Assembly (NCBI GenBank): GCA_964612055.1
Contig: CAZTBI010000002.1
Location: forward strand, 80,296-144,295
Direction: 5' to 3'
Length of the DNA stretch: 64,000 nucleotides
DNA from: an uncultured Bdellovibrionales bacterium
GTDB lineage: Bacteria > Patescibacteriota > Minisyncoccia > Moranbacterales > UBA1568
The notes beneath the pieces were generated by a model. That model did no database searches, was not told where the DNA came from, and saw nothing but the letters and a program-made list of their open reading frames with translations. Numbering within the stretch: the stretch's first letter is position 1; each line of letters starts with the position of its first letter. Made by a program: the position numbers and the translations under genes. Of this stretch, positions 38,889 through 58,781 are shown one piece after another.

Positions 38889-38908
38889 TTTTTTCGACAT
38901 TCTATAAT

Positions 38909-39952: not shown

Positions 39953-39975
39953 GAGAATATTGTCCTTGAGATATT

Positions 39976-40434: not shown

Positions 40435-40440
40435 CAATAT

Positions 40441-40908: not shown

Positions 40909-40911
40909 GGT

Positions 40912-41439: not shown

Positions 41440-41828
41440 AACAGGTACATCTTCGTGGCTATATAGCGATCATGACAGTGCTGGCACTGTTGGTGTTTTC
41501 GCTTTCTCTCTTGATAAGCGTCCCATACCTTTCCATTGGAGGTATTCAGGAGGCAGCTGTTTTTTCGGAGAGCGAGACAGTTTACGCCGCTCTCGAAGGA
41601 TGCGCAGAAGACGCCCTGCTTTTGAGTGTGAGAGACGAAAACTATACAGGCGGTACCTATACGTATCTCGGAGCAACGTGTGAAGTAAGTATTGAAAAAA
41701 ACGATCCATTGTGGACACTCTCTCTTACGGGGAGTAGGTACAGTGTGACACGGGTATTGCGGGTTATCGTAGAGCGTACGCCTGGTACCCCTGGAACACT
41801 GACACTTCAAAGTTGGCTGGAAGAGTGA
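41436..41828 (+). CDS. Minor pilin-like protein (GspK/PilX-like, lacks Glu5)
   Basis: N-terminal RGYIAIMTVLALLV hydrophobic segment. 4-bp overlap with the upstream pilin gene. Confidence 0.5.
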   Translation: MKQVHLRGYIAIMTVLALLVFSLSLLISVPYLSIGGIQEAAVFSESETVYAALEGCAEDALLLSVRDENYTGGTYTYLGATCEVSIEKNDPLWTLSLTGSRYSVTRVLRVIVERTPGTPGTLTLQSWLEE

Positions 41829-41869
41829 AAAACCGGTACAATAGAGGAGCCTATTGAAGATTTTTACGT

Positions 41870-42634
41870 ATGTTTTCAAAAAAACACCCAGCGCTTTTTA
41901 TCAGTAGTGGCTTTATAGAACCAGGAAACGTTACTGTTTCCAAAGAACTTCTTTTTGAGGGGAGCGAGGCGTTGCCATATGACAGAGAAACGTTTCGTCA
42001 GACACTCAGTCAGGCCCTTACTTCTCCTTACAAAAAAGCGCGCCTTGTTCTTTCTGAGGAACTCGTTTATGTAACGACCCTTCTGTTTCCGGTTGGTACG
42101 AAGCTCACTCGAGAACTCGTGAGAAGTCGGGCGGAGGAGACGATCCCGGAGGATCTTCGTGCCACGGCATGGGATTTTCGCACCATGCATTACAAAGAAA
42201 CGATCGGAGAAGCAGGGAGTGTCTTGGTACAGGTAGCGGTAGTAGAAGGGGGATTTTCTGATATTTTAAGCAAAACGTTGGCGGAGCAGGATTTTTCTGT
42301 TGAAGCGATTTTACCGGAATCCTCGGTTCTTGCCTCCCTCGTCGCTGACAAGGAGGGGGTGACAGTGATTGTGGAACAAGATCGTGAACGAATACTCTTT
42401 ATTGCCTGTGAGTCGCATCTCGTTCTTTCTACTCAGACGAAACAAGGAGTATTGGAGTACCCTTCCCTCAAGGCATTCCTCCTCTTTGTTTCCAGTGTCC
42501 TTGAGAAGAAAATAGAGAGTATCATTCTTTCGCATGTTACTGATGCAGAATTGAAAGACAGACTTGAAAAGGATGGGTATATGTACGAAGAGCAGTCGCT
42601 CAATCCTTTCCTTTGCTCGGGGCATTTTTTCTGA
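41870..42634 (+). CDS. Hypothetical pilus-locus protein (possibly PilM-like assembly factor)
   Basis: 254 aa, no TM helix. Position between minor pilins and major pilin. Function inferred from context only. Confidence 0.3.
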   Translation: MFSKKHPALFISSGFIEPGNVTVSKELLFEGSEALPYDRETFRQTLSQALTSPYKKARLVLSEELVYVTTLLFPVGTKLTRELVRSRAEETIPEDLRATAWDFRTMHYKETIGEAGSVLVQVAVVEGGFSDILSKTLAEQDFSVEAILPESSVLASLVADKEGVTVIVEQDRERILFIACESHLVLSTQTKQGVLEYPSLKAFLLFVSSVLEKKIESIILSHVTDAELKDRLEKDGYMYEEQSLNPFLCSGHFF

Positions 42635-42737
42635 AAGTTTCCGGGAAAGATGAGCGAGTGCTCAATTTGAATACTTTTTCCAAGGCTCCAGAGAGATCAT
42701 GGTGGCAGAGAGTCTTCCAAAAAGAGCGCCATAAGGC

Positions 42738-42766
42738 TTAGACAATTCTTGGGAAACTGGTATCAT
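42738..42766 (+). promoter_or_regulatory. Putative promoter of the major pilin gene (TTAGAC-N17-TATCAT)
   Basis: Hexamers at 42738-42743 and 42761-42766. Confidence 0.35.
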
Positions 42767-42794
42767 ACAAATAGGCTTTTCTTTCCGGTTTTTT

Positions 42795-43277
42795 ATGCAG
42801 CACAAAAATATTTTCTCATCCCGCAAGAAGGGTTTCACATTGATTGAAATCCTTTTAGTGATTGGCATCATTGCTGTTTTGGCGACAGTGGTGATTGTTT
42901 CGCTTGATCCGGCCACTCGTTTTCAAAATGCCCGCGACGCCAGGCGTTTAGCCGATATCCAGAGCATTCTTTCTGCGACACAGCAGTATATCGTGGATAA
43001 CAGAGGCTCTCTCCCGAGCGGACTCGACACTACAGAGAAACAGATTGGTACTGGTACCTCGGGCTGTACTCTGACGGATGGTATCTGTAGTGCCAATACT
43101 ACGTACTGTCTTGATTTAGAGACGACGCTAGCGCCTTATTTGAAGGACATGCCCTATGATCCCGAGAACGGTAGTGCCGCTCAAACTCACTACACGGTCG
43201 TTGTTGATAGCAACAATATCGTAACAGTGCGCGCTTGCGATTCTGCCGATACGACTATTGATGAGGTCTCGCGATAG
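42795..43277 (+). CDS. pilA: Type IV major pilin (PilA-like)
   Basis: KG^FTLIEILLVIGIIAVLATVV class III signal with Glu5; C-terminal Cys pair. Confidence 0.85.
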   Translation: MQHKNIFSSRKKGFTLIEILLVIGIIAVLATVVIVSLDPATRFQNARDARRLADIQSILSATQQYIVDNRGSLPSGLDTTEKQIGTGTSGCTLTDGICSANTTYCLDLETTLAPYLKDMPYDPENGSAAQTHYTVVVDSNNIVTVRACDSADTTIDEVSR

Positions 43278-43297: not shown

Positions 43298-44371
43298 ATG
43301 AAGCAGTTACTGCGCCACCTTTCTTTTTTCGGCCGTTACTTCTTTCCGAGGGCTGGTTTATTGCTTTTTTTTGTTTTGCCAGCCAGTACAAATTACCAAC
43401 TCAAGGATTTTGGCTACGGTGGCGGCGGTACGTCGAGTAGTGCTTCGAGTAATTATGCTATCGAGGGCATTGTTGGAGAGCAGGATAGTACAAAACTGAG
43501 TGGCACGACCTACGATCTTGGTCCAGGATTAGAATTTACCAATCAGGCCAATGTGCCTCCAGCTCCGACTTTCACCAATCCGAGTAGCTACTATAATAAA
43601 CTAAAAATAGTTTTGAGTACGGGCAGTAATCCGAGTGATACCAAGTTCGCCATTGCTATCAGTACTGATAGCTTTGTGAGTGATACTCGTTATGTCCAAG
43701 ATGACGATACCGTCGGAAGTGCTCTTGGTGCTGAGGACTATCAAACCTATACCAACTGGGGCGGGGCAAGTGGAGAACTTATTATCGGCCTCCTCTCAAA
43801 TACCACTTACACGGTAAAGGTCAAAGCTATGCAGGGGAGTTTCACGGAGACGGGCTATGGGCCAACGGCATCGGCGGCTACAATTAGTCCAACGCTGACA
43901 TTTGATATTGATGTAGCCGCTACCGATGTCGATAATAGCGTGACGACACTTGATTTGGGGAGTCTCCTTGCTGGTACCGTAGTAGATAGTGCTGAGAAGA
44001 TCTGGGTGGATTTTATAACCAATGGTGAGGGGGGTGGCCGGGTGTATGTGTATGGCAGTAACGCTGGTCTTGCCAGTACTCGCGCGGCCTACACTATTAG
44101 TGCTGTGACGGGGAATCTGACTGCTTTGACGGAAGGATTCGGTGCTCAGGGTTCGACAGCGACTAATGGTCTTTCGGAAGCGACACTTTATGATCAAACA
44201 GGGAATACGGTTGGTACGGTGGATACGGCGATTCGGGAAATATTTACTGCCACGGCTCCCACAACCAGCGGTCGAGGATCATTTCTCCTCAAAGCAAAGT
44301 CTGGAGCGGTGACACCGGCTGCGAATGATTATACTGAAACGTTGACGGTTATTGCTTCTGCGAGTTTCTAG
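43298..44371 (+). CDS. Secreted Thr/Ser/Gly-rich surface protein, WxL-like C-terminus (paralog 1)
   Basis: Signal peptide. Ends ...ANDYTETLTVIASASF, matching the distal WxL motif pattern Y-T-x-T-L-T-W with W replaced by V. Confidence 0.6.
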   Translation: MKQLLRHLSFFGRYFFPRAGLLLFFVLPASTNYQLKDFGYGGGGTSSSASSNYAIEGIVGEQDSTKLSGTTYDLGPGLEFTNQANVPPAPTFTNPSSYYNKLKIVLSTGSNPSDTKFAIAISTDSFVSDTRYVQDDDTVGSALGAEDYQTYTNWGGASGELIIGLLSNTTYTVKVKAMQGSFTETGYGPTASAATISPTLTFDIDVAATDVDNSVTTLDLGSLLAGTVVDSAEKIWVDFITNGEGGGRVYVYGSNAGLASTRAAYTISAVTGNLTALTEGFGAQGSTATNGLSEATLYDQTGNTVGTVDTAIREIFTATAPTTSGRGSFLLKAKSGAVTPAANDYTETLTVIASASF

Positions 44372-44393
44372 TAAAAATTGAATAATCTTTTTG

Positions 44394-44422
44394 ACAGAGG
44401 GCTTTTTTTGTGCTATTATGGA
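44394..44422 (+). promoter_or_regulatory. Consensus promoter (TTGACA-N17-TATTAT) for 44496 gene
   Basis: -35 at 44394-44399 and -10 at 44417-44422. Confidence 0.5.
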
Positions 44423-44495
44423 TAAGTAGGGAAAGAGAGTTTCTGGTTTTTTCTTAGAAAATTTTAGAAAAATAAAAATAAAATAAGCTATCGCT

Positions 44496-45539
44496 ATGGT
44501 ACGAACTGAAATTCAAAGAACAGTCATGCTGGGAATCTTCTCTCTCTTGGTTGTCCTCGCGCTTCCGATATTTTTCATCAACAAGGCCCAGGCAGCAGGC
44601 TTGACTCAGGCCATGGTGCGTCCTGATCGCCTGGCTGCTTCTACCACGACTGGTGGTATGGTATGTGCTAAATCTACGACCACCGCTGTTGAGACAACAG
44701 TCAAAGTGACGTTTCCCACAGGCTTTACCGTAAACAGCACTGCCTCCAACTGGACAGTCACGACGACAGATATCCCTGCCGATGCTACTGCCTGGATTGG
44801 TATCGGGACCGCCTCCCTGGTCTCTGGTCAGGATGTCACGTTTCCGAGTGGTAACATGGTTGTAGGGACACTGTATTGCTTCAACTTTGCTGCCTCAAGT
44901 ACTCTTACGACGAGTACTGCCGGGAATGACAAGACAGGAGTTATTACAACGCAGCTGGCTGGTCCGACGACTATCGATAGTTCGAGTTACGCGCTCTCTA
45001 TTGTTTCGAATGATCAGATTGTTGTGTCGGCTACTGTCCCAGCCACCTTTACTTTCAGCTTGAGTGCCAACACGGACTCCATCGGTACGTTGTCAACAAC
45101 CACCGCCTCTTCTTCTGGTGTGACTGCTACTATCGCGACCAATGCCGCTGCTGGTTGGGTGGCGTGGGCAAAGAGCGCGAACGCTGCTTTGAACTCGGCT
45201 TCAACTGGAGCGACTATTGCGACAGCAGGTACTCTCAATAATGCTCCAACAGATCTCGCCTCCTCTACTGGCTATGTCCTGGATGTGAACGTTACGACAG
45301 ACAGTGGTACCGGTACCGGTACAGTCTCTCAGGCTTCAGATTATGGCGCAGAATACAATGGCACCAACTCGACTTCAGGAGGAACGCTTTCAACTACCTT
45401 TCAGCCGATTGCCGCTTCGAGTGGTACAACCGATGGTGATGTGCTGACTCTCATTGAGCGAGCAAAGATCAGCGCTGTCCAGGCTGCCGCTACCGATTAT
45501 ACCGATACTCTGACAGTTGTTGCTGCCGGTCGTTTCTAA
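44496..45539 (+). CDS. Secreted Thr/Ser/Ala-rich surface protein, WxL-like C-terminus (paralog 2)
   Basis: Signal peptide (cleavage after AQA). Ends ...ATDYTDTLTVVAAGRF; proximal ATFTFSL motif. Confidence 0.6.
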   Translation: MVRTEIQRTVMLGIFSLLVVLALPIFFINKAQAAGLTQAMVRPDRLAASTTTGGMVCAKSTTTAVETTVKVTFPTGFTVNSTASNWTVTTTDIPADATAWIGIGTASLVSGQDVTFPSGNMVVGTLYCFNFAASSTLTTSTAGNDKTGVITTQLAGPTTIDSSSYALSIVSNDQIVVSATVPATFTFSLSANTDSIGTLSTTTASSSGVTATIATNAAAGWVAWAKSANAALNSASTGATIATAGTLNNAPTDLASSTGYVLDVNVTTDSGTGTGTVSQASDYGAEYNGTNSTSGGTLSTTFQPIAASSGTTDGDVLTLIERAKISAVQAAATDYTDTLTVVAAGRF

Positions 45540-45647
45540 AAGGGATTTAAACCGAAAAGATAGGCCTCCTTCCTTATGAAGGAGGTTTTTGTTTTCCCTC
45601 CCAGTAGCCATTTTTTAGAGGAATGCGCTATAATAGAAACATCTTTT

Positions 45648-46730
45648 ATGAAAATCTCCCATTCTTCCTTATTGAATAAGACGGCTTTGCTCGGCCTGTT
45701 TTTTGTCTTCTCTTTCCTCTTGCCACTTCAAGCACGAGCTCAGACGAACCAAGATTCGATCGAAGCGGGTCTCCGCCTTGTGACCTCTCCATTGCCTATC
45801 AGCTTGGTGACCGAGCCAGGGACCTCGATCTCAACTGATCTCAAGATAAAGAATGGTGGTGCAGCAGAAGAGCGTCTCCAGGTGACACTCATGAAATTTC
45901 GGGCCTATGAAGAGTCTGGAAAACCACAGCTTTTAGAGCGAGAAGCTGGAGACGACTTTCTTGATTGGGTTCATTTTTCAGAATCAACCTTTACGCTCGC
46001 TCCGAACGAATGGAAAACAATTACCGCTACCTTTGAGGTGCCACCTACCGCCTCCTTTGGTTACTACTATGCTTTTGTGTTCTCTCGATCCGGGGAAGGG
46101 ACAATGCTCCAGGAAAGAGAAACGGCCATTGTTGGCGGTACGGCCGTTCTCGTGCTCCTCGAGGCTCGTGTTCCCAATGCTCTGAGACAGGTAGAAGTTG
46201 CTGAGTTTTCTCTCGACAAAAAGTTCTACGAGTTTCTTCCAGCGACCTTCTCCGTACTGTTGAAAAACTCTGGTAATGTCCATGTGGCACCTCGGGGCAA
46301 CATCTTCATTGATCAGGGAACAACACATGACGTTGCTATTCTCGAGATTAACCACGAGAAGGGGAGTATTCTTCCTCAATCAAACCGTGCCTTTGAGACA
46401 ACTTGGGAAGATGGTTTTCCGCTCTATGTCGACAAGCTTGAAGATGGAAAAACGGTGCGTGATGAAGAAGGAAATATCATGCAAACTCTCAAGTGGGACT
46501 GGAACAATGCCTCCAAGCTTCGTTTTGGTAAGTACACCGCCAAGATGCTCTTGATCTACGATGACGGACAGCGTGATATCCCGATCGAAGGAGAAGTGTC
46601 TTTCTGGGTGGTGCCTTGGAGGATTATTGGACTGGCTCTCTTCAATATACTGCTCATCGTAGGGTTGATCCTCTACGTGATTCGTCTGCGTCGTAAGTTA
46701 AAGCGTTTGAACTATGAAGAAAAGAAATAA
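45648..46730 (+). CDS. Membrane-anchored cell-surface protein, DUF916/DUF3324-like architecture (copy 1)
   Basis: Start chosen at MKISHSS. Signal peptide ...LPLQARA, a beta-rich ectodomain of about 300 aa, C-terminal TM helix plus basic tail (RLRRKLKR). Confidence 0.65.
   Translation: MKISHSSLLNKTALLGLFFVFSFLLPLQARAQTNQDSIEAGLRLVTSPLPISLVTEPGTSISTDLKIKNGGAAEERLQVTLMKFRAYEESGKPQLLEREAGDDFLDWVHFSESTFTLAPNEWKTITATFEVPPTASFGYYYAFVFSRSGEGTMLQERETAIVGGTAVLVLLEARVPNALRQVEVAEFSLDKKFYEFLPATFSVLLKNSGNVHVAPRGNIFIDQGTTHDVAILEINHEKGSILPQSNRAFETTWEDGFPLYVDKLEDGKTVRDEEGNIMQTLKWDWNNASKLRFGKYTAKMLLIYDDGQRDIPIEGEVSFWVVPWRIIGLALFNILLIVGLILYVIRLRRKLKRLNYEEKK
45704..46628 (+). repeat. Tandem direct repeat copy 1 (925 bp, 100% identical to copy 2)
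   Basis: Identical to 46776-47700 at a 1072-bp period. The ORF track shows identical sub-ORF translations in all frames. Confidence 0.9.
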
Positions 46731-47799
46731 AAATTTCCTTAGAGAGAAAACGATAGGTGCAATTTTTGTGCTTACTGTCTTCTCTTTCCTCTTGCCACTT
46801 CAAGCACGAGCTCAGACGAACCAAGATTCGATCGAAGCGGGTCTCCGCCTTGTGACCTCTCCATTGCCTATCAGCTTGGTGACCGAGCCAGGGACCTCGA
46901 TCTCAACTGATCTCAAGATAAAGAATGGTGGTGCAGCAGAAGAGCGTCTCCAGGTGACACTCATGAAATTTCGGGCCTATGAAGAGTCTGGAAAACCACA
47001 GCTTTTAGAGCGAGAAGCTGGAGACGACTTTCTTGATTGGGTTCATTTTTCAGAATCAACCTTTACGCTCGCTCCGAACGAATGGAAAACAATTACCGCT
47101 ACCTTTGAGGTGCCACCTACCGCCTCCTTTGGTTACTACTATGCTTTTGTGTTCTCTCGATCCGGGGAAGGGACAATGCTCCAGGAAAGAGAAACGGCCA
47201 TTGTTGGCGGTACGGCCGTTCTCGTGCTCCTCGAGGCTCGTGTTCCCAATGCTCTGAGACAGGTAGAAGTTGCTGAGTTTTCTCTCGACAAAAAGTTCTA
47301 CGAGTTTCTTCCAGCGACCTTCTCCGTACTGTTGAAAAACTCTGGTAATGTCCATGTGGCACCTCGGGGCAACATCTTCATTGATCAGGGAACAACACAT
47401 GACGTTGCTATTCTCGAGATTAACCACGAGAAGGGGAGTATTCTTCCTCAATCAAACCGTGCCTTTGAGACAACTTGGGAAGATGGTTTTCCGCTCTATG
47501 TCGACAAGCTTGAAGATGGAAAAACGGTGCGTGATGAAGAAGGAAATATCATGCAAACTCTCAAGTGGGACTGGAACAATGCCTCCAAGCTTCGTTTTGG
47601 TAAGTACACCGCCAAGATGCTCTTGATCTACGATGACGGACAGCGTGATATCCCGATCGAAGGAGAAGTGTCTTTCTGGGTGGTGCCTTGGAGGATTATT
47701 CTCGGAACACTCGCACTCGCACTCTTTGCTTTCTTAGGGGTTCGTTCGACACTTCAGAATATCTGGAAGAAAATAGCGAAAAAAGATACGGTATCATGA
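46714..47799 (+). CDS. Membrane-anchored cell-surface protein, DUF916/DUF3324-like (copy 2, different N- and C-termini)
   Basis: Identical central 308 aa. Distinct signal peptide and a distinct C-terminal TM/tail (GTLALALFAFLGVRS...). Confidence 0.65.
   Translation: MKKRNKNFLREKTIGAIFVLTVFSFLLPLQARAQTNQDSIEAGLRLVTSPLPISLVTEPGTSISTDLKIKNGGAAEERLQVTLMKFRAYEESGKPQLLEREAGDDFLDWVHFSESTFTLAPNEWKTITATFEVPPTASFGYYYAFVFSRSGEGTMLQERETAIVGGTAVLVLLEARVPNALRQVEVAEFSLDKKFYEFLPATFSVLLKNSGNVHVAPRGNIFIDQGTTHDVAILEINHEKGSILPQSNRAFETTWEDGFPLYVDKLEDGKTVRDEEGNIMQTLKWDWNNASKLRFGKYTAKMLLIYDDGQRDIPIEGEVSFWVVPWRIILGTLALALFAFLGVRSTLQNIWKKIAKKDTVS
46776..47700 (+). repeat. Tandem direct repeat copy 2
   Basis: See copy 1. 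Confidence 0.9.
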
Positions 47800-48731
47800 A
47801 GTTTTTTTCATTTTTCATTTTTTCATTTTTTGCCCTTACCCTTGTTTCTGTTCCCGGGAAGAGCATTGCTCAGAGTGAGCAAAGAGGTCTTTCGGTGAGC
47901 CCGGTTTTTCAAGAAGTTGTTTTTGGAGCAGAAGATGTCCAGGCTGAATTTTCGGTGACTTTGAAAAACGAGACAAAGGAAGCGGTAACCATGTATCCCT
48001 CGGTCGTTGATTTCGGCTCTTTGGATGAGAGCGGGGGAGTGGCTTTTCTTGGACAATCTGAAAATTTGGAACGCAAGTATTCTTTGGCTTCATGGATGCG
48101 ACCAGAAAAAGACGTGCTGTCTCTCGATCCTGGCGAAACGGAAGAATTGCAGGTAGTGATAGAAAACAGAGAAACGCTCTCACCGGGCGGACACTATGGA
48201 GCGGTACTGTTTAAAATAGGCGATGAAGCTGGTGTTTCAGAAAAAGAGAACCAAGTCGCTGTTCAGCAACTGGTGTCGGTGCTTGTTTTTGCCAAGAAGC
48301 AGGGTGGAGAGGTGTATCACCTTGAACTCGGGGAAAGTACCTGGTCTAAAAATCTCTTTGCCACGCCTTCTCGAGTAGAGCTGCGCTTCCAAAACCCTGG
48401 GAACATTCATGTTGTGCCACGAGGCACAGTGACACTGACGGATCCTTCGGGGAGAAAAGTAGCTAAAGGTGTTATCAATCAAGAATCAGGGTTTTTACTT
48501 CCGGAAACACTCCGTACCTACCCGGTGAAACTCCAAAACCTTTCCCGAGAGTTCATTCCAGGAAAATATACCCTCACCATAGCCTATCGTTACGACGGAA
48601 AAGAGGATGTCGTAGTGAGAGAAATGAGTCGCGTCATTTTCCCTTGGCAGGGATTGGCAGGGATTGCCTGTATATTAGCAATTTTGTATGGGAGACGTCT
48701 CTTGAGAAGAAAGTCTTCCTTTGGAAAGTGA
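47778..48731 (+). CDS. Membrane-anchored cell-surface protein, divergent third DUF916-like paralog
   Basis: Start chosen at MKFFSFFIF. Signal peptide, same domain order (NxxVxxxPRG, KYTxxxxxxYDDG), C-terminal TM plus RRLLRRK tail. Confidence 0.6.
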   Translation, partial: EKRYGIMKFFSFFIFSFFALTLVSVPGKSIAQSEQRGLSVSPVFQEVVFGAEDVQAEFSVTLKNETKEAVTMYPSVVDFGSLDESGGVAFLGQSENLERKYSLASWMRPEKDVLSLDPGETEELQVVIENRETLSPGGHYGAVLFKIGDEAGVSEKENQVAVQQLVSVLVFAKKQGGEVYHLELGESTWSKNLFATPSRVELRFQNPGNIHVVPRGTVTLTDPSGRKVAKGVINQESGFLLPETLRTYPVKLQNLSREFIPGKYTLTIAYRYDGKEDVVVREMSRVIFPWQGLAGIACILAILYGRRLLRRKSSFGK

Positions 48732-48777
48732 ATCACTTTCCAAAGCATCTTTTAGTGAGGGAAAACAAAGAAAAAGC

Positions 48778-49389
48778 ATGTCAAAAAGAGAGAATACTTG
48801 GTTTACAATGATACACGCACAGAAGAAAAGCCTTTGGGGAGGGTTTTTCGTAACGCTCCTCGTAGTCGGACTGTATTTTCTCTGGCACTTCATGAATGAA
48901 AAGGCTACTGGAGTAGTTTATCAGATAGAAAAGGACATATTTTCTTCTGACAAGGAGCAAGAGATAAGGCTCTATAAAGGGAAATATGTTCATTTTTCTT
49001 CTGCCGGGACATACGAAGAAAAGACTCATGAGATACCTGAGAAAGGTCCAATCAAAGAGAGCATTCTCCTTGCAACATCAGGATCAGACTGGAAAAGAAT
49101 AGCGGTAACAGTTGCTTCTCGAGGCACCGATGATCTTTCAAGTGACCCGTCATTTCAGATGCGTGCTCATGCTCCAGGGGAATATGAAAAAAGCTCATTT
49201 TCTCAGTCGCAAGCACCTTTTTCCGGCGTTTTTTTTGAAAAAAACACGCAACCATTCGAAAGAACAGCTTTTTTTGCTTTGGATGAGTATATAGTGAGTA
49301 TTTCAGCGACATCCCTCTTGAGATCTGATGGGTTGGAAACGGAACTCTCCGAAATTATTTCAAGTCTGCAATTTGAATCAGGGCAGTAA
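48778..49389 (+). CDS. Hypothetical membrane-anchored protein
   Basis: 204 aa from MSKREN; single N-terminal TM helix. Confidence 0.4.
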   Translation: MSKRENTWFTMIHAQKKSLWGGFFVTLLVVGLYFLWHFMNEKATGVVYQIEKDIFSSDKEQEIRLYKGKYVHFSSAGTYEEKTHEIPEKGPIKESILLATSGSDWKRIAVTVASRGTDDLSSDPSFQMRAHAPGEYEKSSFSQSQAPFSGVFFEKNTQPFERTAFFALDEYIVSISATSLLRSDGLETELSEIISSLQFESGQ

Positions 49390-49458: not shown

Positions 49459-52400
49459 TTGAGTCGGGGTGAGCCGACGCAGATGTTTTTTTGTATGCCA
49501 TTCTCACCGAGAAATCTCAAAACAAAAAAAATATACAACGGCTACAAGAATTTTTTCTTGCTGCCCCTCTTTTTTACAGGTATTGCTCTTGTAGCGTTTT
49601 TTTCGTCTCCTGATGTTTTCGCCGCTACTGGTATCAACGAGGAAATTAGTTTCCAAGGGAAGGTAGTCAATGATGATGGTACCAATGTTGCCAATGGTAA
49701 CTACGATTTTGTTTTCAAGCTCTACACCGTCTCTTCAGCTGGGACAGCAGTCTGGACCGAAACTCGAACGGGTGGCAATCAGGTGACGGTGACTGACGGT
49801 ATTTTTCAGGTCAATCTTGGTTCGGTGACGACTTTGCCAGGATCAGTTGATTTCAATACCGATAACATCTATCTCGGTATCGAGTTTAATAGCGATGGTG
49901 AAATGTCACCCCGGGTTCATTTTACGGCTGCCCCCTATGCCATGAATGCGGCCAAGGTAGGAGGGCTGACGGTGACTGATACTACGGGTACGCTGACGAT
50001 TCCGAATGGCAAGACGATTTCTTTTGCTGATGATTTTACAACGTCTGGAGCTTTTGCAACGACACTGACTGCGACGGCGACAACTAACGTCACGCTCCCA
50101 ACGACAGGGACACTAGCGACATTGGCAGGGAGCGAAATATTCACGAACAAAACTATTGGTTCTACCGGGCTGGTCTTTTCTGGCGCGACGACGGATATTA
50201 CCACTGCCTCAAACGAAGATCTGACTCTTACGGCAGCTGGTTCAGGAGATATCGTGTTGGTACTTGATTCAGGTACTTTTGTGAATCTGACTGGTGGCGC
50301 TGATGGAACAGCGGCGTTGACACTGGCGGCTGGTGATCTGACGCTCACTGACGGTGATCTCATTGTGACGGCTGGGGATGTGAATTTCACTTTGGATGTT
50401 GCCGATACATTTAATATCGTTAAGTCTGGGGCCAACGCTGGTGATGTCGCCAACATCACTGCCTCGTCGGTCAATGCTCTTGATGGCTTGCAGATTGATC
50501 TCACAGCGACGACTGATTCTGGAGCAGACAATGTCACGGGTCTTGATCTTGCCTGGACAGAATCTGCGGATGCTGATGTCTGGACCGCTCTCAATCTGCC
50601 GAATACCACAACAACGAATTCCTCCACGAGGGCTTTTGTTATAGGGACGGGATATGACACTATTCTTGATACCGCTGCCCTCGATATTTCTGGAGCAGGA
50701 GTGATTTCTGGGGCGACGGGAATTTCGACGACTACTCTTACGGCATCATCCACTATCGCTGCCAATGGCGGTATTACCTTCGATGCTTCCACAGATACGT
50801 TGGGTGCTTTTACAATGGCTGGCACACTCGATGCCAATGCTAATATCCTGACCAATATTGGAAACTCGGGTACGGATTTCGTAGCCTCGACGGGCGCACT
50901 GACCTTGGCTGGAGTCTTGACGGCCAATGGTGGTATTAGTTTGTCGGCCAGTCAGTCTCTCACAGCAGTAGCTCTTTCATACATTGACCTTGGATCTATC
51001 ACTCATGGTACGACTGCGGTGCAGGGTCTGCGTCTCCCTCAAGCGGCTTCGGCTAGTCCGTCGAGCCCGAGTTCGGGCGAGGGCTATCTCGCTTGGGATG
51101 CGAGCGGCAATCAACTCATTTACTATACGGGAAGTGCTTGGTCCACGATTTCAGGTGGCAGTGGCTACAATCTGATCAAGGATGAAGCAAGCAGCCTAAC
51201 CGCTCGAACGACGTTAGCTTTTCTTGGATCAGGAGTGTCCTGTGCCGACAATGCTTCACAGACAGAGTGTACTATTTCTGGCGGTGGTTCGAGTGATTTA
51301 CAAACCACGTATGGCAATGATGCTGATGGATCTGATGCGACGATTTCTCTTACGACGGCTGATGATTCACTTATTTTTACAAACCCAACCTCCTCTGGTA
51401 CCGACAGCGCCTTCCTCCTCCAAATTTCTCAGCAGCACACGACTGCTGGCGTCGTAGCGCTCGATATCACACAGTCATCCAGTGGAGCAAATGGTCTCAA
51501 TCTTACTGCGAATGCTATCGATACCGAGACGGCTCTAGCAGTGACAGCGAATACGCTCACTTCTGGCTTCGGTCTCAGTATCGCTTCCTCATCAGCGGCT
51601 CTTACGGGAGCATTGCAATCGATCACACTTTCCGGTTCCAATGCCAGTAACACGGGTTCGCTCCTCGCCCTTGATAACACGGGCACCTCCAATGCCAATA
51701 CTTCGCTCTACATCAAGCACTATGCGACTGGTACCAACAATCTGGCCTTCCGCATCGATGACGTCTCTGGTGATACCACGCCGTTTGTGGTTGATGGTAC
51801 CGGGGCAGTAGGTATCGGAACGACAGCACCAACGAGTTTGTTCGAACTCTATGGTACTGGAGCGGCTGACATTGTCGGTACCCTGACCGCCCCTGACGCG
51901 ACGTACGATCCCATTTTCAAATTCCGCACCGGTTCGACTCCGGCCGTTATGTTCTCGATGGGTGTTGATAACTCTGATTCAAGTAAATTCAAGATCTATT
52001 CTGGTGATGGCCTAGGAAGTGGTGATGAATTCGTCATTGATGCCGGTGGCGTGACGACTATTGCCAACCTCAATCTTGGAGCTACCAGTTTTGACGAAGA
52101 CGCCGGTATTGTTTCTTGGATGGATATGTCGGTGACTGCATCATCAGCAGTAGACAGTATCCAGAGTTATTCGGCGCTCATTGATGGCAATAGTCTTCTC
52201 ACGGTTTACGCTGAATCTGATGGCGCTGACGGTATTCAGGATAAGCGTATTCAGATTGGTGAGGGCGGAGCTGGCTCGACGGGCCCAACGCTTTTGGCTC
52301 TCGATGTGAAATCAGATACGAGCGATCCAGCGGGTTTCGAGGGTGCCATGTACTACAACACGTTCGATAATGTTTTCCGCTGTTACCAGAATAGTGGCTG

Positions 52401-55400
52401 GACGAACTGTATTGGGTCGGGTGGTTCATCGGATCTTCAGGCAACGTACGGTAATGATGCCGACGGTTCCAACGTCACTATTTCCCTGACCTCGGCGGAT
52501 GACGGCATCGTTTTCAGTAACCCAGCTTCTTCTGGTACTGACAGCGCCTTTACCTTCAAAGTAGAACAGCTGAATACCGGTATCGATAACGACGCTTTGT
52601 ATATCGACAATCGTGGAACAGGGGATGGGCTGCGGATTGATGATGAATCTGGCGATACCACGCCGTTTATTGTCGACAAAGATGGTCGGGTGGGTATCGG
52701 GACGAGTTCCATTAGCGCTGCCGCTGCGACGGAACGTCTCCTTCAGGTTGGGTCAGAAACAAACCGAGGAAATAGTGTGACATACGGTGAAGTGGTAACA
52801 AAAGGTCAGCGCGACATCACGGCGCTTACCAATATTAAGGATATCTATGTGTACGACACCACGGCTGATAGTGATGGTGGTCGCTGGATTGACTGGGCGA
52901 CGACCGATAAATTGTCGTGGTATACGGAGACGCTTGATGATGGCCCGAATGACCCGTGCAATATTGCCTCTGATGATCGCTGTTACAAGGCCTCGTTCCC
53001 GCGCAAGGCTATTTTGGTCGTAACGACCGATGCTCTCTATATTTTCGATGCCCAGGACAACACCTTGTGGATGAAGTTTAGTCAGAACGCCTCTGGATAT
53101 GCGCTTGGTATTGATACTAACAATGATCCTTCGTCAGTGAGCGCTTTGAACGGGGTGATCTATGTGGGAACCAATGGAGTCTCAGCTGGAGGGCTTTATG
53201 CATTTGATTTTACGACAGATCGGATGTGGAAATATGACTCTACCGATCGTAGTCAAGGTGATGTTGGTATAGGAAGTCGCAACAGCGCTGTAACATATAA
53301 TTCTGATAATAATACCCAGTTTGATCTTGGTAATGATACCGGTTGGGATGCTGTGAATGATGTATCAGTTGCTACGATGCAGTTTAGTACCACGGCCATT
53401 GCTATCGGTACTACCACGAACATTGGTCCGGGCAATGGTTCAACGCTCGTGGCTGTGGCTACTGATTCAGGACTGGGAGTTATTAATCTTTCTAGACAAC
53501 GTTATGTCGCTTATTCGGATGCTACGGATGATAACTACAATGCCGTCGTAATTACACGGACCGCTAAACTGTATGGCTTGAATAATACCCTAGACCAAGC
53601 AGAAAAGTGGATTAATATTGATCAGGATCAGGTGAGCGAAGAAAATGGAACGCCTGATAAGGTGTGGGATCAAGCTTCTACGCCTGCGCTTTCTAAAACT
53701 CAGCCTGCAATCAGTAGTGGGGCACCAGATGCGCTCGAGGTAGTGGAGCGTGGCTCGCTTGCGGACGGTGGTTTGCTTTCGACAGCTGCCGCTGCTGGTT
53801 CTTCAGACCTTATCTATGTTGGTACTGACCAGGGTTTGACAGAAATCCATGATCATTCGACCCCAGCTTCTGGTTGGTCAAAATTTTTCAATACTACTAA
53901 GCAGTCAGCGCTCATGCCGGGAACTATCAAGCGTGCCCATATGATGGATGATGCTTCTGGAGATTTGACAGATGATAGTTTCCGAGTAAATACCATGGCG
54001 CCCATTGGGGGCGTAACCTATGGAATCAATGGTGCGCGAGGAAAAGCAGTGACGCTCAATGGTACGAGCGGATTCTTCTGTTCAGATAATGGTGGAGCAA
54101 CTTGTGCTGTAGATACTGATGACAATATGAGCACAACCGCTTGGAATATGCAGATGTGGTTTAAGCATTCTGTAACTCAGGCAGGGACTGATGTTTTGTA
54201 TAGCCGCTGCTACAATACAACCCCGGCTGCTGCCGCTGCCTGTGTAACAGTCTATATGACGAGCACTGGTACTATGGTTGCTGCTTATGATGATGATGCT
54301 ACTTGGACAGCTTACTCCTCGTACGATGCTATGCTCACCTCGACACGGACGTATAATGACAATCAATGGCATCATATGGTTATGGCTCGTGATAACGCCA
54401 ATGACCTCCATTTCTTTATTGATGGCACGCCGATTGTTTCAAATAATGCGACTGGATCGACGCTGACACTTGATGCTAGTCAAATCGTATCGATCGGAGC
54501 GGATTGTAGCGTAGGAGTGGCCTGTGCGACAGGGGCCAATTTCTGGGATGGTTCCATAGATGACTTTACCTTTAGTCAGGGTACGACAACAGTAGATGCG
54601 TTGACGGGAGCGCAGGCACGCCGTCTCTATAATGATGCTCGGCCTCTTTTGAACAAAAAAGTAATCACGGTTACTGATGCTACTACCGCTACCTCTACCA
54701 CGATAGGTGATTCAGGAGAAACATGGATTCCGAATGAATTTTCGAGTCAGATTGTAGAAATTACGAGCGATACCGGAGCGGGTCAGACACGTCGCATCGT
54801 TGCTAATACGACAACAACATTAACTGTTTCCCCAGCCTTTTCGACAGTACCAGACACGACTTCAGATTTCGAAATCAATCCGGAAATTTTGTACGGCGCT
54901 TCGAATACTGTGACAGCCATCGGTGTCACGGGAGAGTCAGCCATGGGCGAAGCGCGTCAGTTGTGTGTAGGTACGAATAGCACGACTGACACGGGTGGTG
55001 TCACGTGTCTTAACCATCAAGCTGGGCCGAACCTGGTAGCTGACATGTATCACGGAGACTCGGAACAGACCGATGATAGTGGTGCGGAATGGACGGGCAC
55101 GGACTATGATGATATCCAATCTATTGATATCTCCGGTCGTGCGATGGTAATTGGCTCCATGGCGCACCTCTGGACAGAAACGGAAGATGTTCGTCTAGGA
55201 CAAGGAATGGATTATCTTTCCAATAAGATATTTGATTTGACTAACGTGGTAAAGAACCTTGGTATGCAGACCCTTGCTGGAAGTGGTAGCATGGAAATTG
55301 GTTTAACCGGTGGCGCTGACTTGGCTGAGCATTATTATTCGAACGAAGTTCTTACTGCGGGAGAGGTGGTAGCGATCGACAAGAGTCTTGTCGCGGGGAT

Positions 55401-56880
55401 CAAAAAAACGACCGGTGCCTATCAAAAAGATGTGCTTGGTATTGTCGCTACCGAACCAGGGATTATTCTTGGTGGAGCAGCTGAGAACTCCTATCCCGTT
55501 ACCCTGGTCGGACGTGTCCCAGTCAAAGTGACCAATGAGAACGGTCCAATCTATGCCGGTGATCGGCTGACATCAAGCGTGCGTCCGGGCTCTGCCATGC
55601 TTGCTACACAGGCTGGTCGAGTGCTTGGTGCGGCTCTGGCTGATGCTGTCGACTGGACAGTCTGTGAAGGGGAAAACCCACAGGATACCAATGCCTTGCT
55701 CTGTACGACTGTTATGGTGTTCATCAATCTGACGGATTATTCTGGTCAGTCGGTGGAACTGGCTATGGCAGAGCGTAATGCTGAATCCGATGGGCTTTCT
55801 GATATGGCAGCGCTCGATAGTATCGAACAAGGGCTCGGATCCGATAGCGCGAGCATCCGTCTCTCAAGAAACATGCCGACCAAGCAGGAAAAAATCCTCG
55901 ATTTCTTGAAGGATCTCGACGCCAAGCAAGTGGCCTCTGGTCAATCACTCTCAGAAGTCTTTACGGGACGAGTGGCCGCTTCTCGTGAGGTGATCACCCC
56001 GACTCTCTATGCCGATCAGATTTTTGCCAAGAGTATCAAGGCTGACTCTATCGAAGGGCTGGAGATCTTCACGAATCAGATCAGTAGTTTGGAAGAAAAA
56101 TATGCTGGTCTCGATGCGAAAGAAAGTGATTCATCAGAAACAACCGATACTGTGAAAGAACAGTTGGCTCTTGCCATGAAGAAACTTTCGGCTGATACAC
56201 TCATACTCAGGCTCGATGGCAGTATCTTGGGTAAACTTTCTGTGAATGGCGCGCTCAAGGTTGGTGAGACAGCAGAGTTTGGTGGAGAGACAGTCTTTGT
56301 GAAGCTTGCCAGTTTCTTGGACAAGACGATTTTCAAGGGAATGGTTTCATTTGAAAGTACACCAACCTTTGCCAGTGATACGGCTGGTTTCGCGGTGATT
56401 GCCAAGGATGCCCGGAGAGTACGCGTGGTATTTGATACACCGTACGAGAAGCAGCCGATCGTAACGGTCTCACTTACCCGCGAAGAGTCGCCACTGCTTT
56501 CTGAAGCCGATGAAGATTTGAAAAAGGATATTGCACTTTTGGAAGAAGAGTATGTAGGAGCTGTCTTCAAAGAAAATGTCCGTTATGTGGTGACGGAAAA
56601 ATCAGCCAACGGATTTACCGTCGTTCTTTCCGAAAAAGCAGCTCGTGACCTCCAGTTCTCTTGGGTAGCGCTCTCAGTGGATAAGGCTAAATCATTTAGT
56701 TCAGAACCGGAAGGGGAGGAAGAGGTGCTGCCACCGGCTGATCCGACAGAAGAGATTCTTCCGGCTGAAGAGGAAGTCGAGGGGACAGAGGAGATCCCGC
56801 CTCTTGAAGAGGAAAAGACCGAAACTTTGCCTTTGCCTGATGTTCCAGAAGCGCCGGCAAAGATCGAAGACTTACCATAG
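49459..56880 (+). CDS. Giant (2473 aa) secreted/surface protein with Thr/Gly/Ser-rich beta-repeat regions, LamG-like (Laminin_G_3) domain and acidic Glu/Pro-rich C-terminal tail
   Basis: N-terminal signal/TM (LLPLFFTGIALVAFF). Repeated module ...GGSSDLQ(T/A)TYGNDADGS... appears twice. LamG_3-like segment (WNMQMWFKH...NQWHHMVMARD...LHFFIDG...FWDGSIDDFTFS). Tail EEEVLPPADPTEEILPAEEEVEG. Confidence 0.75.
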   Translation: MSRGEPTQMFFCMPFSPRNLKTKKIYNGYKNFFLLPLFFTGIALVAFFSSPDVFAATGINEEISFQGKVVNDDGTNVANGNYDFVFKLYTVSSAGTAVWTETRTGGNQVTVTDGIFQVNLGSVTTLPGSVDFNTDNIYLGIEFNSDGEMSPRVHFTAAPYAMNAAKVGGLTVTDTTGTLTIPNGKTISFADDFTTSGAFATTLTATATTNVTLPTTGTLATLAGSEIFTNKTIGSTGLVFSGATTDITTASNEDLTLTAAGSGDIVLVLDSGTFVNLTGGADGTAALTLAAGDLTLTDGDLIVTAGDVNFTLDVADTFNIVKSGANAGDVANITASSVNALDGLQIDLTATTDSGADNVTGLDLAWTESADADVWTALNLPNTTTTNSSTRAFVIGTGYDTILDTAALDISGAGVISGATGISTTTLTASSTIAANGGITFDASTDTLGAFTMAGTLDANANILTNIGNSGTDFVASTGALTLAGVLTANGGISLSASQSLTAVALSYIDLGSITHGTTAVQGLRLPQAASASPSSPSSGEGYLAWDASGNQLIYYTGSAWSTISGGSGYNLIKDEASSLTARTTLAFLGSGVSCADNASQTECTISGGGSSDLQTTYGNDADGSDATISLTTADDSLIFTNPTSSGTDSAFLLQISQQHTTAGVVALDITQSSSGANGLNLTANAIDTETALAVTANTLTSGFGLSIASSSAALTGALQSITLSGSNASNTGSLLALDNTGTSNANTSLYIKHYATGTNNLAFRIDDVSGDTTPFVVDGTGAVGIGTTAPTSLFELYGTGAADIVGTLTAPDATYDPIFKFRTGSTPAVMFSMGVDNSDSSKFKIYSGDGLGSGDEFVIDAGGVTTIANLNLGATSFDEDAGIVSWMDMSVTASSAVDSIQSYSALIDGNSLLTVYAESDGADGIQDKRIQIGEGGAGSTGPTLLALDVKSDTSDPAGFEGAMYYNTFDNVFRCYQNSGWTNCIGSGGSSDLQATYGNDADGSNVTISLTSADDGIVFSNPASSGTDSAFTFKVEQLNTGIDNDALYIDNRGTGDGLRIDDESGDTTPFIVDKDGRVGIGTSSISAAAATERLLQVGSETNRGNSVTYGEVVTKGQRDITALTNIKDIYVYDTTADSDGGRWIDWATTDKLSWYTETLDDGPNDPCNIASDDRCYKASFPRKAILVVTTDALYIFDAQDNTLWMKFSQNASGYALGIDTNNDPSSVSALNGVIYVGTNGVSAGGLYAFDFTTDRMWKYDSTDRSQGDVGIGSRNSAVTYNSDNNTQFDLGNDTGWDAVNDVSVATMQFSTTAIAIGTTTNIGPGNGSTLVAVATDSGLGVINLSRQRYVAYSDATDDNYNAVVITRTAKLYGLNNTLDQAEKWINIDQDQVSEENGTPDKVWDQASTPALSKTQPAISSGAPDALEVVERGSLADGGLLSTAAAAGSSDLIYVGTDQGLTEIHDHSTPASGWSKFFNTTKQSALMPGTIKRAHMMDDASGDLTDDSFRVNTMAPIGGVTYGINGARGKAVTLNGTSGFFCSDNGGATCAVDTDDNMSTTAWNMQMWFKHSVTQAGTDVLYSRCYNTTPAAAAACVTVYMTSTGTMVAAYDDDATWTAYSSYDAMLTSTRTYNDNQWHHMVMARDNANDLHFFIDGTPIVSNNATGSTLTLDASQIVSIGADCSVGVACATGANFWDGSIDDFTFSQGTTTVDALTGAQARRLYNDARPLLNKKVITVTDATTATSTTIGDSGETWIPNEFSSQIVEITSDTGAGQTRRIVANTTTTLTVSPAFSTVPDTTSDFEINPEILYGASNTVTAIGVTGESAMGEARQLCVGTNSTTDTGGVTCLNHQAGPNLVADMYHGDSEQTDDSGAEWTGTDYDDIQSIDISGRAMVIGSMAHLWTETEDVRLGQGMDYLSNKIFDLTNVVKNLGMQTLAGSGSMEIGLTGGADLAEHYYSNEVLTAGEVVAIDKSLVAGIKKTTGAYQKDVLGIVATEPGIILGGAAENSYPVTLVGRVPVKVTNENGPIYAGDRLTSSVRPGSAMLATQAGRVLGAALADAVDWTVCEGENPQDTNALLCTTVMVFINLTDYSGQSVELAMAERNAESDGLSDMAALDSIEQGLGSDSASIRLSRNMPTKQEKILDFLKDLDAKQVASGQSLSEVFTGRVAASREVITPTLYADQIFAKSIKADSIEGLEIFTNQISSLEEKYAGLDAKESDSSETTDTVKEQLALAMKKLSADTLILRLDGSILGKLSVNGALKVGETAEFGGETVFVKLASFLDKTIFKGMVSFESTPTFASDTAGFAVIAKDARRVRVVFDTPYEKQPIVTVSLTREESPLLSEADEDLKKDIALLEEEYVGAVFKENVRYVVTEKSANGFTVVLSEKAARDLQFSWVALSVDKAKSFSSEPEGEEEVLPPADPTEEILPAEEEVEGTEEIPPLEEEKTETLPLPDVPEAPAKIEDLP

Positions 56881-56954
56881 CTACCTCTTGAAAGAAGCCC
56901 CGAAAATGTTCTCGGGGTTTTTCTTTGCAGCGAATATTTACTGATGTTAGAATA

Positions 56955-57941
56955 ATGAGCATGAATAGGCTTCATCTCACCACTTTTCTTATCTTTATTA
57001 CTGGCCTGGCTCTGGGTGTTTTTGTGGCGCCTTTTTTGCCGAAAGAAGCTTCACTTGAAATAGGGTCAAAGCAGGTGCGACAGTTTGGAGGTTATACCTA
57101 CACCAATCCCTTATTGGAGTGTGAAGTAGCCGAAGGCGTGATCGATGCTCGCCAAGAGAACTTTCATCATGACGTCGAGGCATTTGTTACTCATTTGCAG
57201 GAGGAGCAAGGTCTTTCTGATGTGGCAGTATACTTTCGTGATTTAAACAATGGTCCGACGTTTGGTATGCGCCAGGAAGATGAGTTCTTCCCGGCATCAC
57301 TGCTCAAGGTGCCGGTGATGATGGCCTACTATCATTGGTCAGAAGAGGAGCTCACTCTTCTACAGGAGAAAATCCTTTATGAAGCCCCGAAGGACTTCGG
57401 AGTCATGACCACAATCAAGCCGCGCGAGGAATTACGAGAAGGGCAGATGTATACGGTCGAAGAACTTGTCCGACGGATGATCGTGTATTCGGACAATCAA
57501 GCTCTCGGACTCCTGACGAGTCGTCTGCCTTTGGAAAAAATGAAAGATCTTTTTACCATGCTCGGAGTAGGGGATGACGTCCTGTCTGATCCCGATGCCA
57601 AGTTGACGGTCAAAGAATACGCTGCTTTTTTTCGCATCCTCTTTAACAGCTCTTACTTGTCTCGGGAGAATTCAGAAAAAGCGCTGACGCTTCTCGCTTC
57701 TACTGACTACCATGACTCTTTGCCAGCAGGCGTTCCAGAGGGAATTCCGGTGGCGCATAAATTTGGTGAAGCGGGAACAGGGGATGTTGAGCGCCAGCTT
57801 CATGACTGCGGCATTGTCTATTTCCCGAATCATCCCTACTTGGCCTGTATCATGACTCGAGGACATGATACAGAAATGCTCAAAGACGTTATTCAAAGGA
57901 TCTCTCAATTTATGTACGTCAGGATTGACGAGCAATACTAG
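56955..57941 (+). CDS. Class A beta-lactamase-like serine hydrolase, membrane-anchored
   Basis: N-terminal TM helix. S-x-x-K (SLLK) and SDN motifs, plus KFG in place of KTG. Confidence 0.6.
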   Translation: MSMNRLHLTTFLIFITGLALGVFVAPFLPKEASLEIGSKQVRQFGGYTYTNPLLECEVAEGVIDARQENFHHDVEAFVTHLQEEQGLSDVAVYFRDLNNGPTFGMRQEDEFFPASLLKVPVMMAYYHWSEEELTLLQEKILYEAPKDFGVMTTIKPREELREGQMYTVEELVRRMIVYSDNQALGLLTSRLPLEKMKDLFTMLGVGDDVLSDPDAKLTVKEYAAFFRILFNSSYLSRENSEKALTLLASTDYHDSLPAGVPEGIPVAHKFGEAGTGDVERQLHDCGIVYFPNHPYLACIMTRGHDTEMLKDVIQRISQFMYVRIDEQY

Positions 57942-57965
57942 AGACTTTTTTTTGCGACCAGTATC

Positions 57966-58781
57966 GTGTATACTAGAGATACATTTATGCCTCCACGAAC
58001 TGCGCGGACAACTCGTTTGAAAATGACAGCCGAATCAGCGCCTACACCAGGAGTGCCAGTTTCTGTTTCGAGAGAAAAATCTCTTCTCCCGGCTGTCATG
58101 GTACTTTCGACATTGCTGCTCATAGCACTTTCTGTGGCCGGGTATTTCTATTACCAGTATCGTCATTCGGCTCAGGTTGCTGATGCCAAGGAGATTGCCG
58201 ATCTTTCTCAAGAAATCGGTGCTGTCATGATGCTACCAGAAGGAGAGGTACCGACGCTCGCTACGGTGACAGACCGAGAGAAGCTCGCAGAGCAAGCATT
58301 TTTTGAGAAGGCCGAGAACGGTGACAAAGTCTTAATCTATAGTCAAAGTGGCCGGGCTATTCTCTATCGTCCCAGTATCAAAAAAATTATCGATGTGACA
58401 ACGGTCAACGTCAATACGCCGGCACCGGTAGCTGAGAACAGCGCTGTTACCGAGACTGTTCCAGAACCTCAGGTTGAGCCGGAAATACCAGTTATTCCAA
58501 GTATTGTACGGCTGGCGCTTTTTAATGGCTCGACGACACTTGGTATAACCAATGCCAAGGAAAAAGAACTCACCACTGCTTATTCAAATATCGCCGTAGT
58601 TTCCAAGGATGCGGCTAAGAAGAATGATTACGAAAAAACAGTGGTTGTAGATGTTACTGGAAAGAATACTGATATGGCCGCAAAGATAGCAGCCACTTTG
58701 GGTGGCAGTGTCTCGAGCCTTCCAGATGGCGAAGTAGCCCCATCCGATGCCGATATCATGGTCATCATAGGCCAGGAATAA
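57966..58781 (+). CDS. LytR_C-domain membrane protein (paralog of 32907-33509)
   Basis: TM helix, Pro/Glu-rich linker, C-terminal LALFNGSTTLG...VVVD LytR_C-like domain. Confidence 0.55.
   Translation: MYTRDTFMPPRTARTTRLKMTAESAPTPGVPVSVSREKSLLPAVMVLSTLLLIALSVAGYFYYQYRHSAQVADAKEIADLSQEIGAVMMLPEGEVPTLATVTDREKLAEQAFFEKAENGDKVLIYSQSGRAILYRPSIKKIIDVTTVNVNTPAPVAENSAVTETVPEPQVEPEIPVIPSIVRLALFNGSTTLGITNAKEKELTTAYSNIAVVSKDAAKKNDYEKTVVVDVTGKNTDMAAKIAATLGGSVSSLPDGEVAPSDADIMVIIGQE

Follow-up and report, generated by a model that had tools for sequence, protein, structure and literature searches.

A predicted giant surface fibre of Candidatus Moranbacteria with an internal domain resembling a phage tailspike chaperone

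How the ultrasmall bacteria of the Candidate Phyla Radiation (CPR, Patescibacteria) recognize and hold their hosts is largely obscure beyond a few Saccharibacteria, for which type IV pili and some adhesins with lectin domains are required (PMC10633639). The window analyzed here, a stretch of 64,000 nucleotides (nt) of a Moranbacterales genome, contains a giant gene (nt 49483-56880, + strand) beside a type IV pilus cluster: what kind of protein does this gene encode, and could it serve attachment? The answer we favor, with a probability of roughly 0.6, is that the product is a Sec-exported giant trimeric surface fibre of Candidatus Moranbacteria, anchored by its N-terminus, glycan-binding and self-processing, and built on the plan of phage tail fibres and of the mosaic adhesive trimer (MAT) fibres of Bdellovibrio. 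The gene is a testable candidate for the means by which ultrasmall CPR bacteria grip other cells, and offers a handle on episymbiont attachment.

The frame is open without interruption from nt 49459 to 56880 on the + strand (2473 codons counted mechanically from a TTG at 49459), and the earlier note took this full length for the protein. The length is correct for the open reading frame (ORF), but the true start is likely the first ATG, at 49483, which gives a product of 2465 amino acids (aa). The integrity of this giant frame is borne out by an independent gene call from another assembly and contig (P0001), which is 100% identical over all 2465 aa. A 2474-aa relative (P0002) is 85% identical, and other assemblies, one of them a complete 1.2-Mb genome, contain intact relatives that are longer or shorter; nothing suggests that the gene is broken or chimeric. 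Residues are numbered from the ATG at 49483, residue n beginning at nt 49483+3(n-1). A 330-aa ORF on the opposite strand (49935-50927, - strand) lies entirely within the giant gene; it most probably arises from the Thr/Ala/Gly-rich codon composition and is no gene. The domain order runs from a signal peptide and an N-domain through a Thr/Ala/Gly-rich stalk with two fibre-module copies to a seven-bladed beta-propeller, a LamG domain, a third beta domain and a long helix, followed by a beta-tulip domain, a helical linker, an H-type-lectin-like domain and a Glu/Pro tail:

49483..56880, + strand: coding sequence of the giant protein, 2465 aa plus stop; same gene call as P0001
49483..49623, + strand: signal peptide, aa 1-47, with a Lys-rich n-region, the hydrophobic core FFLLPLFFTGIALVAFF and a likely cleavage site between VFA and A; read by eye
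49624..50268, + strand: conserved beta-rich domain at the N-terminus, aa 48-262, a relative of the N-domain of Bdellovibrio MAT fibres
50269..51237, + strand: Thr/Ala/Gly/Leu-rich stalk, aa 263-585, delimited by composition; variable among relatives, with low homologue coverage
51238..51828, + strand: fibre module copy 1, aa 586-782, comprising a Cys loop, block A (GGSSDLQ...SSGTDSAF), an insert of about 110 aa and block B (RIDDVSGDTTPFVVDGTGAVGIGT)
52378..52710, + strand: fibre module copy 2, aa 966-1076, shorter, without the insert of about 110 aa
52810..53934, + strand: modelled seven-bladed WD40-like beta-propeller, about aa 1110-1484
53992..54579, + strand: modelled LamG/ConA-like jelly-roll, about aa 1504-1699
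54664..55272, + strand: third beta-rich domain, aa 1728-1900, then a long helix, aa 1905-1930, according to the secondary structure and the predicted local distance difference test (pLDDT) values of an AlphaFold2 (AF2) model
55312..55329, + strand: GADLAE motif, aa 1944-1949, with the predicted autocleavage site between A1945 and D1946
55312..55752, + strand: predicted beta-tulip intramolecular-chaperone domain of the phi29 gp12 (Peptidase_G2) type, aa 1944-2090
55753..56349, + strand: helical linker, aa 2091-2289, with the conserved motif IKAxSIEGLEI; helices predicted at low confidence
56350..56712, + strand: modelled H-type-lectin-like beta domain, aa 2290-2410
56713..56877, + strand: disordered acidic Glu/Pro tail, aa 2411-2465 (E 31%, P 20%; pLDDT <50)

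The argument for a self-processing fibre starts from the C-terminal module (aa 1944-2410), which about 110 of 120 homologues possess and which has the same starting point in all relatives. The structure model of aa 1940-2465 contains two confident domains with low-confidence helices between them and a disordered tail. GADLAE, the motif with which the module opens, is unchanged in all 60 close relatives compared, and its D and E, together with the Y, are invariant in alignments of 66 and of 41 sequences. Linking the first domain to gp12 of phage phi29 required a profile of this domain only, combined with a fold search. In the profile alignment, A1945-D1946-L-A-E1949-x-Y is placed on S691-D692-F-A-E695-Y of gp12 (E 0.029), with both the Asp and the Glu of the gp12 cleavage boundary (S691-D692-x-x-E695, cut after S691) retained, and the modelled structure has the beta-tulip autochaperone fold. 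Catalytic roles for D692 and E695 of gp12 were reportedly proposed by Xiang and colleagues in 2009. The crystallized C-terminal fragment of gp12 (3gqh) begins at the Asp of S691-D692. Thus, fold and motif are common to the giant protein and domain D4 of the gp12 pre-neck appendage, or tailspike (Peptidase_G2, PF11962), although sequence identity is 20% and the module of the giant protein goes undetected by Pfam, is not at the extreme C-terminus and lies inside a cellular, Sec-exported protein. In one relative (P0102), Peptidase_G2 is detected at the same position with 25.2 bits against a threshold of 25. The gp12 D4 domain acts as an autochaperone, and its homology to bacterial adhesins has been pointed out (bioRxiv 10.1101/216911); intramolecular chaperones of fibres and spikes aid trimerization and then release themselves (PMC9128512).

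Additional evidence comes from domain replacement. The domain scan found no Peptidase_S74 in the giant protein; in the relative P0113, Peptidase_S74 occupies exactly the chaperone slot and is followed by the same distal half. The presence of two unrelated fibre chaperone-proteases in one slot is strong circumstantial evidence that this slot functions as a chaperone-protease. Behind it, the segment of the helical linker contains three invariant residues (A248, I251 and G253 in segment numbering) and, judging from the model, is possibly a coiled coil. The closest known counterparts of the H-lectin-like domain are the H-type lectins (Helix pomatia agglutinin, the C-domain of discoidin I; PF09458). 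The C-terminal 60 aa, for which a Glu/Pro content of about 35% had been noted, indeed form an acidic Glu/Pro tail, but the count gives 52% (19 E, 12 P). In relatives, the slot of this tail is taken by Pro-rich tails of other sequence, or by Peptidase_M23 (P0097, P0103) and/or SH3_3 (P0103, P0086). Given that the chaperone is internal and that M23 and SH3 domains lie behind it in relatives, the C-terminal end appears to be distal and functional, not merely discarded.

The same organization would fit a delivery device, in which a gp12-type cut frees a trimeric C-terminal "warhead" (beta-tulip, coiled coil, H-lectin and, in relatives, M23/SH3) onto the cell wall of a target, the acidic-tail version in the window being a cargo-less or purely binding form. 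This alternative draws on the variable slot that always lies behind the C-domain, with its M23, SH3_3 or Pro-rich tails, on the retention of the distal half even where S74 replaces the G2-type module (P0113), and on the invariance of the cleavage-site residues; nevertheless, we consider it unlikely.

The favored reading, a fibre that serves attachment, is further suggested by the N-terminal part. The N-terminus, MFFCMPFSPRNLKTKKIYNGYKNFFLLPLFFTGIALVAFFSSPDVFA followed by A, reads directly from the sequence as a signal peptide, and 16 of the 17 cysteines sit close together in eight pairs (587/596, 967/976, 1159/1167, 1533/1541, 1576/1587, 1675/1681, 1828/1842 and 2061/2074), a pattern that an exported protein would be expected to show. 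The N-domain, presumed to be the cell-proximal anchor, is found in about 110 of the 120 homologues and is similar to the NCBIfam family NF053851, Bdello_MAT_N (E 2.4e-7, 30.7 bits, aa 47-124 on profile positions 9-85 of 162), a sequence match that is statistically significant yet falls short of MAT membership. A search with a CPR N-domain profile yielded 306 proteins, every source-named one of which comes from Patescibacteria (Gottesman-, Moran-, Levy-, Nomura- and Saccharibacteria, and Parcubacteria).

MAT fibres are trimers displayed on the cell surface, where they bind prey, and their N-domain is constant (PMC10769870). Those of Bdellovibrio bacteriovorus (NF053851; Caulton et al. 2024, PMC10769870) share with the giant protein a signal peptide with a related beta-rich N-domain immediately behind it, a long fibre (putative in the giant protein) with a common junction motif (the match to 8ojn, Bd3182, described below) and distal domains that are exchanged among family members, lectin folds among them. 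In the C-terminal part, the G2-type module of the giant protein would be a functional analogue of the S74 chaperone-protease of MATs, and a further parallel is an organism that lives on other bacteria. The giant protein differs in being about 2.5 times longer, with an N-domain that scores at half the family cut-off; its chaperone is a gp12/G2 beta-tulip and not S74, which is found in one relative, and is trailed by the linker, the H-lectin-like domain and the tail; the head is a conserved block of propeller, LamG and beta domain instead of a small tip; and the host lineage, Patescibacteria, is absent from the main text of the MAT paper (PMC10769870). By analogy, the giant protein would work in the manner of MAT fibres or phage tail fibres.

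The junction motif belongs to a duplicated module in the shaft. The earlier note described two segments about 1.14 kb apart as near-identical; they are genuine homologous copies, but their identity is 71% in protein and 70% in DNA. Block A (GGSSDLQxTYGNDADGS...SSGTDSAF; nt 51280-51429 and 52417-52566) has 35 of 49 identical residues and 70% DNA identity over 131 nt, and block B (RIDDxSGDTTPFxVDxxGxVGIGT; nt 51751-51828 and 52633-52710) has 19 of 26 identical residues. A Smith-Waterman comparison of aa 541-800 with aa 921-1100 (ORF numbering) gave a score of 244, against 47 +/- 9 and a maximum of 81 for 200 shuffles, and it is this comparison that demonstrates the duplication, self-BLASTP of the giant protein having returned the identity match alone. 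The block A copies differ at 39 nucleotides, 26 of which are at codon position 3, indicating an old duplication under purifying selection. Because the 120 relatives differ in their block A count (one copy in 41 of them, two in 8, three in 2), the number of modules is a variable feature of the family. The modules further upstream (GYLAWDAS... versus GAMYYNTF...), likewise thought to be related, share motif-level resemblance only (by eye, roughly 7 residues in 24 agree) and lie beyond the limits of the optimal local alignment. The stretch that includes block B (aa 750-795) matches PDB 8ojn with an E-value of 0.0076, a short sequence match; the structure corresponds to residues 632-922 of the MAT fibre Bd3182 (PMC10769870). 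A diversity-generating retroelement target was ruled out, there being no adenine-specific mismatch bias between the copies and no further repeat copy in the window.

The core of the protein (aa about 1040-1900), common to about 68 homologues, contains the putative head. A LamG-like jelly-roll near 53.9-54.6 kb had been proposed from the sequence, and this prediction is supported at about nt 53992-54579: the modelled fold is a two-sheet jelly-roll, and the orthologous segments of P0028 and P0049, which map to aa 1544-1697, score 47.7 and 46.2 bits with Laminin_G_3 (threshold 27.6). The giant protein itself scores near threshold with Laminin_G_2 (21.3 bits against 22.9), and a profile of 41 full-length relatives produced weak LamG matches only (neurexin, laminin LNS) against PDB sequences. 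LamG membership thus holds at the level of the fold and, in orthologues, of hidden Markov models (HMMs), and fails by HMM score on the giant protein, whose domain stays below the Pfam thresholds of its known counterparts, the LamG/ConA-like lectins (PF13385; clostridial neurotoxin HCN; AbnA domain 4). The earlier note supposed that this module might specify the host or substrate; it lies in the conserved core and outside the most variable part of the protein. The folds of the propeller, LamG and beta-tulip domains are supported by structure models, with a more tentative assignment for the H-lectin-like domain. A GH33 sialidase, which combines a propeller with a lectin, was rejected since the propeller did not prove to be a six-bladed one ranking with sialidases. 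In a loop region at the start of the propeller, a D-x-D-x-G-x-W motif (nt 52855-52893, aa 1125-1137, YDTTADSDGGRWI) is invariant in 60 relatives and may, from its sequence, bind metal; the conserved Cys pair 1159/1167 comes after it. For the third beta domain (54664..55272), no specific fold match was identified; it opens with the motif W-x-P-N-E-F-...-G-x-G-x-G-Q-T-R-R-I-x-x-N-T-x-T-x-L-T-V (nt 54664-54900, aa about 1728-1806), which is conserved among relatives.

Taken together, the domains support the view of the earlier note that the protein is a candidate adhesin or lectin, a description that was incomplete inasmuch as the MAT-related N-domain, the propeller, the gp12-type module, the H-lectin-like domain and the mosaic build were missed. 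Trimerization, cleavage and host binding are what we infer from these parts, and a tentative sequence of events can be proposed. After Sec export, the N-domain would anchor the fibre at the cell surface, as proposed for MATs (PMC10769870). The Thr/Ala/Gly-rich stalk and the two fibre modules would then form an elongated, probably trimeric shaft, displaying the propeller, LamG and third beta domain, the folds of which are modelled, as putative ligand-binding heads. The gp12-type beta-tulip would drive folding of the trimer and probably cut between A1945 and D1946, so that the mature fibre would measure about 1900 aa; the remaining C-terminal piece, about 520 aa long and comprising the beta-tulip, the helical linker, the H-lectin-like domain and the acidic tail, might remain attached or come free. 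In biological terms, the fibre would likely mediate attachment to another cell or surface by way of glycans, with the propeller-LamG head and the H-lectin-like domain as the predicted glycan binders, and the fibre probably acts together with the conserved neighboring envelope proteins and the adjacent type IV pilus.

Several observations weigh against this reading. On the chaperone side, the similarity to gp12 is borderline when judged by sequence only (E 0.029), and in the giant protein neither Peptidase_G2 (PF11962) gives a Pfam match above threshold nor does H_lectin (PF09458) reach its own. Unlike in gp12, the chaperone module is internal (aa 1944-2090 of 2465), with about 370 residues after it, and the enzymes found behind the chaperone in relatives are a poor fit with a piece that is simply discarded. 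Moreover, release of D4 from gp12 is said, in the 2009 work of Xiang and colleagues, to depend on ATP, and there is no ATP outside the cell. As for the N-domain, its 30.7 bits are below the curated NF053851 cut-off of 60, the match covers only profile positions 9-85 of 162, and of six relatives tested, two match this family and four do not. The MAT-like intertwined trimeric beta-helix or prism of the shaft is assumed. Finally, PF13385 gives no match at E<=1 on the giant protein.

The relatives form a mosaic family, with constant ends and a middle that is exchanged from member to member. Coverage over the 120 homologues falls into four zones, namely a conserved N-domain, a variable stalk, the core and the C-terminal module, and among other relatives the middle or the chaperone slot holds Kelch repeats, collagen, Toxin_R_bind_N or Peptidase_S74. 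The 526-aa query aa 1940-2465 retrieved 15,059 cluster representatives (50% identity) at E<=1e-3, 3,989 at 1e-10 and 639 at 1e-30; a cluster look-up of ten distant C-domain relatives included one Gottesmanbacteria entry. Wherever sources name members, they are almost always called "hypothetical", so that the family is essentially unannotated; we found no description of it in the literature, although our search coverage was incomplete and an earlier description is possible. The parts are individually familiar; it is the way they are combined, together with an autochaperone placed internally and a spread across the CPR, that makes the family a testable handle on episymbiont attachment. A broader and rather doubtful conjecture is that Patescibacteria possess a very large and unannotated family of MAT-like host-interaction fibres with an internal phage-type autochaperone, whose self-cleavage would release or arm a trimeric lectin/enzyme head (an H-lectin, alone or joined to M23 or SH3) at the wall of the target; if true, a self-processing attachment-and-attack fibre would underlie the episymbiotic lifestyle. 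The swapped cargo domains may mark host or substrate range in metagenomes.

The gene is chromosomal, with type IV pilus genes upstream, envelope genes on both sides and dnaG and rpoD downstream. Its immediate neighbors are:

43298..49389, + strand: six upstream accessory genes for secreted or membrane-anchored proteins, with weak Pfam matches, made up of the following
43298 and 44496, + strand: Thr/Ser-rich secreted proteins, both ending in ...DYTxTLTV...
45576, 46714 and about 47793, + strand: three genes for proteins with an N-terminal signal, a C-terminal transmembrane segment and weak WxLIP_PGBD/fn3_5 similarity
48721, + strand: 222-aa membrane protein
56925..58781, + strand: downstream neighbors, a Beta-lactamase2-family gene and a LytR_C gene

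The gene order is the same in the complete 1.2-Mb Moraniibacteriota genome (CP064975.1), and two genomes that are more distant retain homologues of the accessory genes on the flanks of the giant gene, in rearranged form. This neighborhood bears on two further alternatives. Some of the neighbors (LytR_C, beta-lactamase/penicillin-binding-protein-like and WxLIP-like, Pfam relatives of which bind peptidoglycan) would suit a structural envelope protein, S-layer-associated or part of a matrix, whose lectin-like domains hold polymers of the producing cell's own wall and recognize no other cell; such a role would also be in line with the occurrence of a single copy in the window, where no second N- or C-domain was found, and with a core that is conserved and not hypervariable. 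However, exchange of cargo in the middle and at the C-terminus (Kelch, M23, SH3, collagen, neurotoxin-type binding domains) is what receptor-binding fibres typically show, and the phage-fibre chaperone module points to a fibre as well, so we rate an envelope role as slightly less probable than the delivery device. The resemblance to phage fibres could, in principle, mean that the gene is not cellular at all, being instead a depolymerase-active tail fibre or tailspike of prophage or phage origin. The lack of any PHROGs match at E<=0.1 and the housekeeping neighborhood (DnaG, RpoD, the type IV pilus and envelope genes, in an order kept in the complete 1.2-Mb genome) argue against a prophage, as do the signal peptide and a domain scan that detected no glycosidase or lyase family; we regard this explanation as very improbable.

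Directly upstream of the accessory genes, the type IV pilus cluster (37191-43277, + strand) encodes a PilB-like T2SSE ATPase with MshEN (37191), a PilC-like T2SSF platform protein (38909) and at least two pilins with N_methyl (40912 and 42795). The accessory set (Thr/Ser-rich secreted, WxLIP-like, LytR_C and Beta-lactamase2 proteins) flanks the giant gene in four genomes (the window, L001, L002 and L003) in varying order, and its layout recalls Gram-positive WxL surface-protein loci, although a WxL domain was not detected. Within the set, the tandem genes 45576-46730 and 46714-47799 (+ strand) overlap by 17 nt and encode products that are 93% identical over 341 aa and weakly similar to fn3_5; judging from these sequences, they look like a recent gene duplication within the accessory cluster. 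A third, diverged paralogue follows at about 47793-48731, with about 23-25% identity and a weak WxLIP_PGBD match.

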